From Heterodontus francisci (Eukaryota), in the NCBI RefSeq assembly GCF_036365525.1, contig NC_090419.1, forward strand, positions 11,780,001 through 11,828,796: a DNA stretch of 48,796 bases, in the 5' to 3' direction. The notes under the pieces were generated by a model. It was not told the origin of the DNA. It saw nothing but the letters and a program-made list of their open reading frames with translations, and did not search any database. The position numbers were made by a program, and so were the translations under genes. Position 1 is the stretch's first letter. Each line of letters starts with the position of its first letter. Positions 6,401 through 6,803 of the stretch are shown here, in pieces.

Positions 6401-6803
6401 TCGCTCAGAAACGTAACTTTCTGAAAAGTAAGCGGCGGTCAACAGATCTGATTTTGAAACGACTTTTTAAGCAACTGTAACCGAACAATTTTCCTTCCTC
6501 CCGCAGGTTGGCATCAACTACCAGCCCCCGACGGTGGTACCAGGGGGCGATCTGGCAAAGGTGCAGCGAGCCCTCTGTATGCTGAGCAACACCACCGCCA
6601 TTTCCTTGGCTTGGACCCGCCTCAACCTCAAATTCGATAAGATGTACGCCAAGCGGGCCTTTGTCCACTGGTACGTGGGGGAGGGGTTGGAGGAAGGGGA
6701 GTTCCAGGACGCACGGGAGGACATGGCCTCACTCGAGAAGGATTACGAAGAGGTGGGCATCGATTCTTCCTCGCTGGACAGAAGGGCAGAGGAGGAAGAA
6801 TAA
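3440..6803 (+). CDS. TUBA: Alpha-tubulin type A, copy A1 (450 aa; Q40; ends [13 protein letters not shown]). Exons 3440-3442, 4354-4576, 4690-4838, 5308-5988, 6507-6803
   Basis: ATG-only first coding exon, then GT-AG introns. Exon sizes 3/223/149/681/297 match the vertebrate alpha-tubulin layout. MREC start, GGGTGSG motif, [21 protein letters not shown]. Open frame to TAA. Specific orthologue not assignable by eye. Confidence 0.97.

Follow-up and report, generated by a model that had tools for sequence, protein, structure and literature searches.

Alpha-tubulins without a coded tyrosine

An alpha-tubulin of chicken testis without a coded C-terminal tyrosine was reportedly described by Pratt, Okamura and Cleveland in 1987. 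This testis-specific protein is cited as a divergent vertebrate isotype lacking the coded tyrosine in PMC9081340. TUBA4A is also encoded without the tyrosine and has a Glu-Glu end (PMC3563685; PMC6374996), and TUBA8 ends in Phe (PMC3563685), unlike the family described below which ends in Glu. Delta2-tubulin cannot be tyrosinated by TTL and is made enzymatically by the loss of Glu450 (PMC3563685). The alpha-tubulin residues that contact TTL are P175, E207, R308, H309, E386, R390, H393 and E433, with E441 and E449 acting as anchors in the tail; weaker binding to the core lowers tyrosination, to which tail length and composition are most likely irrelevant (PMC3563685). With regard to other modifications of the tail, E445 is the major polyglutamylation site (PMC3563685), CCP enzymes strip terminal glutamates by one or two residues and TTLL11 extends Glu-ending tails best (PMC13648886). 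Detyrosination gives protection from kinesin-13, and worm neurons that are permanently detyrosinated show mild signs of greater stability (PMC11216746).

PMC12838686 does no more than enumerate the alpha-tubulin isotypes. No description of a shark-ray family was found by title or start of abstract in a search whose scope mostly excluded subscription journals, and the word tubulin is absent from the main text of the catshark genome paper (PMC11979771) and of the Squalomix preprint on tandem clusters (10.1101/2025.06.08.657570). Alpha-tubulins without tyrosine are already known from vertebrates; what the sequence adds is the family itself, its amplification and its altered TTL surface. Three protein searches returned no bird protein scoring like a family member among the matches listed, and orthology to the chicken testis isotype is therefore not indicated.

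The genes of the window and their tails

The window is the whole of the DNA analysed here, a stretch of 48,796 nucleotides (positions 11,780,001 to 11,828,796, forward strand) from contig NC_090419.1 (C49, 16.2 Mb) of the 6.0-Gb genome of the horn shark, Heterodontus francisci. Five intact alpha-tubulin genes of five exons each lie on its plus strand in the order A1-B1-A2-B2-A3; their introns are all GT-AG and their open frames encode 450 (type A) or 451 (type B) amino acids. A1 (3440..6803; exons 3440-3442, 4354-4576, 4690-4838, 5308-5988 and 6507-6803) is followed, 72 bases past its stop, by an AATAAA that is its likely poly(A) signal (6875..6880, plus strand). A2 (16100..19462) and A3 (28879..32255), the latter being the final copy of its array, differ from A1 by 6 and 9 nucleotides, respectively, and encode an identical protein. 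B1 (9047..12245; exons 9047-9049, 9453-9675, 9789-9937, 10740-11420 and 11946-12245) and B2 (21707..24909) differ from type A at 22-23 positions ahead of the tail end, and from each other in that B1 carries N101K. Residue 40 is Gln in type A of the window, encoded by CAG at 4468..4470 (plus strand) of A1, and Lys in type B, in which the codon is AAG as it is in the second array. The MREC start is present, in PDB the last exon matches alpha chains best and identity to the canonical alpha-tubulin of the genome is ~90-91% over residues 1-438.

The tail of A1 (6747..6803, plus strand) has no Tyr and carries Ser441, Arg444-Arg445 and a Glu449-Glu450 end, with TAA as codon 451. That of B1 (12186..12245, plus strand) likewise lacks Tyr and has Tyr441, Arg444-Arg445 and five Glu at its end, and the tails of A2 (19406-19462), B2 (24850-24909) and A3 (32199-32255), all on the plus strand, repeat these two types. 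An initial annotation of A1 and B1 had described tails that lack the terminal Tyr and contain an Arg-Arg pair, and this description holds for all five genes. Its further claim that the proteins are made detyrosinated is borne out at the coding level; in type A the genomic stop takes the place of the Tyr codon. In the canonical genes of the genome codon 451 is TAT or TAC, and loss of the tyrosine by a single point change is therefore a simple inference. From residue 438 onwards the window types contain no Gly and 4-5 Glu, with a net charge of -4/-5, as against 1-3 Gly, 6-7 Glu and a charge of -7/-8 in three canonical genes of the genome, in agreement with the less acidic, glycine-free tail previously proposed.

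The initial annotation also considered that transcripts might be spliced to an alternative end encoding Tyr. Within their tail codons neither A1 nor B1 has a donor-like site, the 3' flank of A1 contains two weak GTAA words, and Glu-Tyr-stop occurs on the plus strand of the window in a single case, at 37905, 5.6 kb beyond the last gene. Of 17 sequencing runs screened, none contained half of the query words. Reads of four runs were compared with 6747-7300: run X1, which is from another organism and is RNA by guess, gave one contig of 444 bases which over 6762-6824 crosses the stop position with 6 differing letters and no joint; from X4 came one piece of 36 bases in the flank, and X8 and X10 gave nothing.

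Copies and constraint in the horn shark genome

Matches to the last exon number 62 across the genome; 31 of them, on C49 and C1300, encode the Arg-Arg tail, which is therefore neither chance nor a sequencing slip. A total of 43 gene models were built (25 on C49, 4 on C1300, 1 on C463 and 13 other alpha-tubulins on C7, C51 and C25), leaving out a lone last-exon match on each of C4 and C36. The C49 copies form two arrays, the first with 16 copies (11.70-11.81 Mb) and the second with 9 (11.95-12.05 Mb), and all 25 full-length models have GT-AG introns and no internal stop. Three database proteins labelled Heterodontus francisci agree letter for letter with three of the gene models, two of them lacking the first 35 residues. 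At the inversion centre of the first array (C49:11722067-11726876) two type B fragments of exons 4-5 only point away from each other, their last exons being without exons 2-3, and the copies to the left lie on the minus strand.

Four complete coding sequences in C1300:1-27294 are exact duplicates of four consecutive C49 copies, and for this reason the four C1300 models were dropped as likely assembly redundancy. That some copies are redundant in this way is what might be expected if the tails were artefactual, whether through assembly error or through splicing to a Tyr-coding end. However, the C49 copies are for the most part distinct in sequence, 17 species (see below) have the same Tyr-less end and, as noted above, the tail contains no donor and Glu-Tyr-stop does not occur nearby; an artefact is hardly credible as an explanation.

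All 25 C49 genes end in Glu, with D443, R444, R445, A446, E449 and E450, and all keep Y224, N228, R402, E415 and the catalytic E254 of alpha-tubulin. N101K is found in two type B copies (B1 exon 3, window 9789-9937, and C49:11776977), at a position that is otherwise invariant and presumably near the nucleotide site; to judge from this substitution the two copies are possibly impaired. Over codons 2-438 (Nei-Gojobori method, own script) dN/dS was 0.22 between A and B, 0.13 and 0.12 between A and two second-array genes and 0.20 between B and the second array, compared with 0.09 and 0.02 for two canonical pairs. By this measure the C49 genes are under purifying selection, yet less constrained than canonical genes.

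The excess over the canonical pairs would be compatible with drift, in which a single point change removed the Tyr codon of a weakly used duplicate that unequal crossing-over then multiplied on a small chromosome rich in repeats, the tail changes being neutral. The step from TAT/TAC to TAA takes one base, the array contains an inversion, partial copies and the two N101K copies, and tandem duplication has been reported to rise with elasmobranch genome size (10.1101/2025.06.08.657570). Set against this are 25 open and correctly spliced frames with dN/dS far under 1, a tail length, basic pair and set of helix H11 changes that are common to sharks and rays, and core promoter elements that have been kept, and we regard drift as very improbable. 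No beta-tubulin array matching the alpha arrays was found, ~nine full beta last exons being spread over six contigs, and this weakens a simple dosage argument. A divergent beta-tubulin with an unusual Tyr-rich tail at C32:49130195-49131307 is a candidate partner.

Around the arrays several repeats were observed. Two adjoining copies of a LINE-type reverse transcriptase lie on the minus strand of the window at 44007-47838, with Pfam RVT_1 in the first. At C49 ~11.875 Mb (L103:4654-8409) a 1252-aa frame with endonuclease and reverse transcriptase domains stands behind a 694-aa frame; this element is apparently an intact LINE, with several near-copies between and beyond the arrays. The window also contains, at 38161-41540, a long GC-skewed tandem repeat of short units with proline-rich open frames.

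Range across sharks and rays

It had been proposed that the tail peptide be searched for its phylogenetic range. When the 40 residues on the tail side were used as query, 24 of 60 candidates were hits. Of these, 21 belong to sharks or rays, 2 to a frog and 1 to a fluke, and the frog and fluke hits are without the residues of the family. Two further searches were made with helix H11 and with residues 107-206 of a ray copy, so that the queries came from the type A last exon and from a portion of a ray protein; both were crowded by fused tubulins, and among the best 120 of 5084 proteins for the first and the best 120 of 6458 for the second, the named hits at 88% or above (H11) and at 95% or above (residues 107-206) were all elasmobranch. 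Counting cluster members, of which 15 of 36 were listed for the main cluster, the type is seen in 17 species, 11 sharks and 6 batoids, and among the matches listed there was no family member from a chimaera or a bony vertebrate. In a tree of 85 rows with a midpoint root, built by a quick search only, without a mammalian alpha-4A row and with P0002 left out as too short, the 39 family rows form one side of a branch (SH-aLRT 99). The database names of these genes are generic ('alpha-1C/1D/8-like') and have hidden the family. On these comparisons it is a shark-and-ray type of alpha-tubulin and more than the oddity of one species.

Amongst 49 database family tails that look intact, rows which are not independent as many are skate copies and 3 come from the horn shark genome, none ends in Tyr and 44 end in Glu, with 42 ending at position 450. 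The Glu-Glu end is kept in 34, E445 is missing from 47 and two basic residues occupy 444-445 in 29. Seven rows were excluded because their models are truncated or run on (P0007, P0034, P0052, P0124, P0153, P0154 and P0156), and P0255, P0259 and P0263 fell outside the tail filter. The suggestion that the tail would offer fewer glutamylation sites is supported by the loss of both E443 and E445 from the family tail, with the consequence that modification would fall on the terminal Glu run. Extra Ser or Tyr phosphoacceptors, which had also been suggested, are not a trait of the family as a whole, as these are shark-side changes and most ray copies read S-A-D-L.

A single divergent family member at C463:234718-250832 carries R40 in a K40 loop that is strongly basic, and its end is hydrophobic and without Tyr. 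Proteins like it form a branch with representatives in white, basking, zebra and whale sharks, catsharks and sawfish.

The TTL docking surface

In all 29 models on C49 and C1300, 24 of 437 positions differ from a canonical reference gene. These fixed changes include Y108C, T190V, T193C, M413L, S419Q, E420D and A427S, together with H309Q (codon 5857..5859 of A1, plus strand), which alters a TTL contact residue of canonical alpha-tubulin. Within helix H11 (6606..6641 of A1, plus strand) E386L (E386L/F across the models), A389T, H393L and L397K are fixed in the family, and E386 and H393 are also TTL contacts. Three of the eight contacts (H309, E386 and H393) are thus fixed as changed, an enrichment with p=0.007 against all 437 sites that weakens in a local control, to p=0.03 over residues 304-312 plus 384-437 and to p=0.10 when 384-437 is taken by itself. 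E386 and H393 are kept in none of the 49 family rows and H309 is absent from 38 of the 43 rows aligned there; R390, P175 and E207 are kept. All 13 of the other alpha-tubulins modelled in the genome keep E386 and H393. In the tail, position 441 is Ser or Tyr in the horn shark copies and Asp in 29 of the 49 database tails, mostly those of rays. Asp443 lies six residues ahead of Glu449, which is the E441-E447 spacing of alpha-1C, and Asp443 could on this basis act as a TTL anchor. Helix H11 binds other proteins as well.

A second group of alpha-tubulins without Tyr was found at C7:12.59-12.68 Mb. Its four genes end in I, F, C and F and carry R40, H309R and Ala or Val at 441; they form one branch (97) apart from the shark-ray family and are counted as a single event. 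The 9 Tyr-ending genes of the genome all keep H309 and an acidic residue at 441. Loss of the tyrosine and erosion of TTL contacts, as read from these gene models, thus coincide twice in the genome, which is two events and no more. A correlation between the two losses in 141 non-family proteins was dropped, the sample having been selected by similarity to the family and containing fungi, fragments and truncated ends. Elsewhere on C7 (12422848-12427729) is a short Tyr-ending alpha-tubulin with W40, the tail of which, ..SADLDREEY, resembles the ray family tail; it was placed weakly (71) beside the family in the tree.

The closest comparison is with TUBA4A. Shark copies differ from the TUBA4A type in that Ser or Tyr replaces the acidic anchor at 441, the penultimate Glu being kept, and the family as a whole differs in its 24 fixed changes, three of them at TTL contacts, its basic residues at 444-445, the lack of E445, an extra intron and ~25 copies; it is the fixed changes in TTL docking that separate it from TUBA4A. 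The family could nevertheless behave as TUBA4A may do, being made without Tyr and then tyrosinated normally by TTL, so that the pool alone is shifted and the H11 changes serve some other partner. Glu449-Glu450 is in register with detyrosinated alpha-1, all 25 C49 genes retain the Glu-Glu end required by TTL, 42 of the 49 database tails end at 450 and 29 keep Asp441, and isotypes with two acidic anchors, TubA4A included, are described as potentially tyrosinated (PMC3563685). On the other hand the family has fixed changes at three core contacts, of which two are altered in every one of the 49 rows, shark copies have Ser or Tyr at 441, and alpha-4A closely resembles the other alpha-tubulins (PMC6374996), unlike a family with two dozen fixed changes. 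A TUBA4A-like behaviour is in our view unlikely, though it deserves to be taken seriously. Loss of H309, E386, H393, E445 and, in sharks, E441 suggests instead that the family is likely a poor TTL substrate, unlike TUBA4A. It also differs from Delta2-tubulin as E449 and E450 are both present in 25/25 genes, and any escape from TTL would be gene-encoded through the docking surface. The shark- and ray-wide range of the type, its amplification to ~25 copies and the fixed changes on the TTL docking surface were all overlooked in the initial annotation.

Residue 40

Residue 40 is K in 18 and Q in 7 of the 25 C49 genes, and two copies with the A tail keep K40. The Q40 copies alternate with K40 type B copies in the array, Q40 is one base from a K codon, and no family member of another species with residue 40 aligned has Q there. 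Elsewhere Q40 was seen in teleost copies that end in Tyr (Gouania) and in an alpha-8-like protein of crocodile that ends in Phe. Gouania willdenowi itself has multi-copy divergent alpha-tubulins (a 19-entry cluster; P0135, P0158-P0171) with Q40, H393Y and a Tyr tail. Q40 was thus acquired late, by a single sub-type within one lineage.

It had been proposed that type A, with Q40 and no Tyr, would encode both classic marks of stable microtubules. The 7 C49 genes that combine the two features, and their alternation with K40 type B copies, are what would be expected if type A had been shaped to hard-code an acetyl-mimic together with the missing Tyr. The idea is weakened by the recent appearance of Q40 in 7 of 25 copies and by the extra serines not being kept in rays; the remaining 18 copies and the members checked in other species are without Q40, natural Q40 occurs in the Tyr-ending tubulins of Gouania, and engineered K40Q had no more than small effects in C. 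elegans neurons (PMC11216746). Such shaping of type A seems decidedly improbable, and Q40 may simply remove acetylation.

Origin of the family

Human TUBA8 and TUBA3 are taken here to have a five-exon layout with an intron between codons 352 and 353, and this intron is common to the family (5989..6506 in A1, plus strand). Within the genome it is present in the C49, C1300, C463 and C25 genes and is absent from all 12 of the C7 and C51 genes. A MiT/TFE gene lies ~30 kb ahead of the first array and an ALAS gene between the two arrays. The remaining three MiT/TFE genes lie on C25, C19 and C18; C19 also carries the second ALAS gene and C18 carries PEX26, so that C49, the C25 chromosome with the five-exon gene and the PEX26 chromosome each have a MiT/TFE gene. 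The shared intron and the placement of the MiT/TFE and ALAS genes fit a reading in which the family and the Tyr-ending C25 gene would be whole-genome-duplication sisters within the five-exon TUBA8/TUBA3 line. In the quick tree the alpha-8-like and alpha-3-like rows fall outside the family branch, the deep forks being weak (71), and tetrapod alpha-8-like rows have a branch of their own (99).

Two more specific placements were rejected. TUBA8 is, we assume, linked to PEX26; PEX26 is on C18, where no alpha-tubulin was found among the matches listed, and the family ends in Glu, not Phe, which does not suit a TUBA8 orthologue. A NCAPD2/SCNN1A-type locus, the region that we guess to hold mouse Tuba3a, was also considered; both of these genes are on the unplaced contig C1032 and not on C49.

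Promoters and place of use

The promoter of A1 (3303..3382, plus strand) contains an X-box-like 15-mer (3303-3317), a CCAAT box and a TATA box (3375-3382). The X-box pattern was picked after the site had been noticed. B1 has an identical 15-mer at 8910-8924 (plus strand), and some 400 bases upstream of its first exon (window 8540-8650) is an exon-1-like sequence in which TTG replaces ATG. TATA and CCAAT boxes are kept in both arrays; the X-box-like 15-mer, ~137 bases ahead of the ATG, is present in 15 of 16 C49 promoters of the first array and in 3 of 10 of the second, including that of the most divergent gene of the second array. A match arose in 2% of 5000 shuffles of one promoter. As a control, candidate first exons could be found for 3 of the 13 other alpha genes and none had the X-box pattern, which is too few to count. 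RFX factors are regulators of ciliary genes and work through X-boxes near promoters (PMC5838959), and RFX2 regulates spermiogenesis (PMC4498915). The promoters may therefore hint at use in sperm or ciliated cells.

A different place of use is the marginal band, the microtubule ring of nucleated blood cells, for which a red-cell isotype might have the same biochemistry. The ALAS gene between the arrays would be an erythroid neighbour if it is ALAS2. Its score against human ALAS2 is nearly tied with that of its paralogue (162.9 vs 164.8 bits), GATA words occur only at >250 bases upstream of the ATG and are missing from some promoters, and neighbourhood is not co-expression. Even with the requirement for Tyr-less alpha-4A in the platelet marginal band (PMC6374996), a red-cell role appears improbable.

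Proposed role and significance

The reading that we prefer, with belief and doubt about evenly weighed, is that these genes encode a tandem-amplified shark/ray isotype without Tyr, maintained by purifying selection, which would be a poor TTL substrate and would give microtubules that stay untyrosinated. The kept core residues suggest that the protein most likely folds and polymerises normally as alpha-tubulin. Changes at H309, E386 and H393, together with the loss of E441 in sharks, would then weaken the two-part grip of TTL on body and tail, a step that we think probable. Ends without Tyr would in turn be engaged less by CAP-Gly proteins and kinesin-13. With Arg-Arg in place of the E445 site, the charge of the tail would be set at the terminal Glu run, which may be trimmed by CCP enzymes or lengthened by TTLL11; full trimming is predicted to leave an uncharged tail end, the tail moving from about -4 to 0. 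More tentatively, and with somewhat less than even confidence, the ~25 copies may meet a large one-off demand for long-lived microtubules, for which sperm or ciliated cells would be the likeliest setting. A bolder version, which we think doubtful, is that the family is a whole-genome-duplication copy lost by bony vertebrates that now provides a gene-encoded exit from the tubulin code, in a dedicated microtubule system, likely of sperm, that never cycles tyrosine. In this version Tyr, the site for TTL docking and the branch point at E445 would all be gone, the basic pair would make the terminal Glu run the one dial of tail charge, and the genes would number dozens.

TUBA4A is believed capable of returning to the tyrosination cycle, and the known untyrosinatable form, Delta2, is made by enzymes. 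If the shark and ray proteins are untyrosinatable by their own sequence they would be a natural reagent for telling apart the effects of the absent Tyr, of tail charge and of the H11 surface, and natural pairs exist in K40 and Q40 copies with the same tail and in Asp441 (rays) as against Ser/Tyr441 (sharks). Antibodies to Tyr-tubulin would likely miss the family in shark tissue. Should the gene-encoded exit prove true, sharks and rays would provide a natural vertebrate test of the purpose of the tyrosination cycle.
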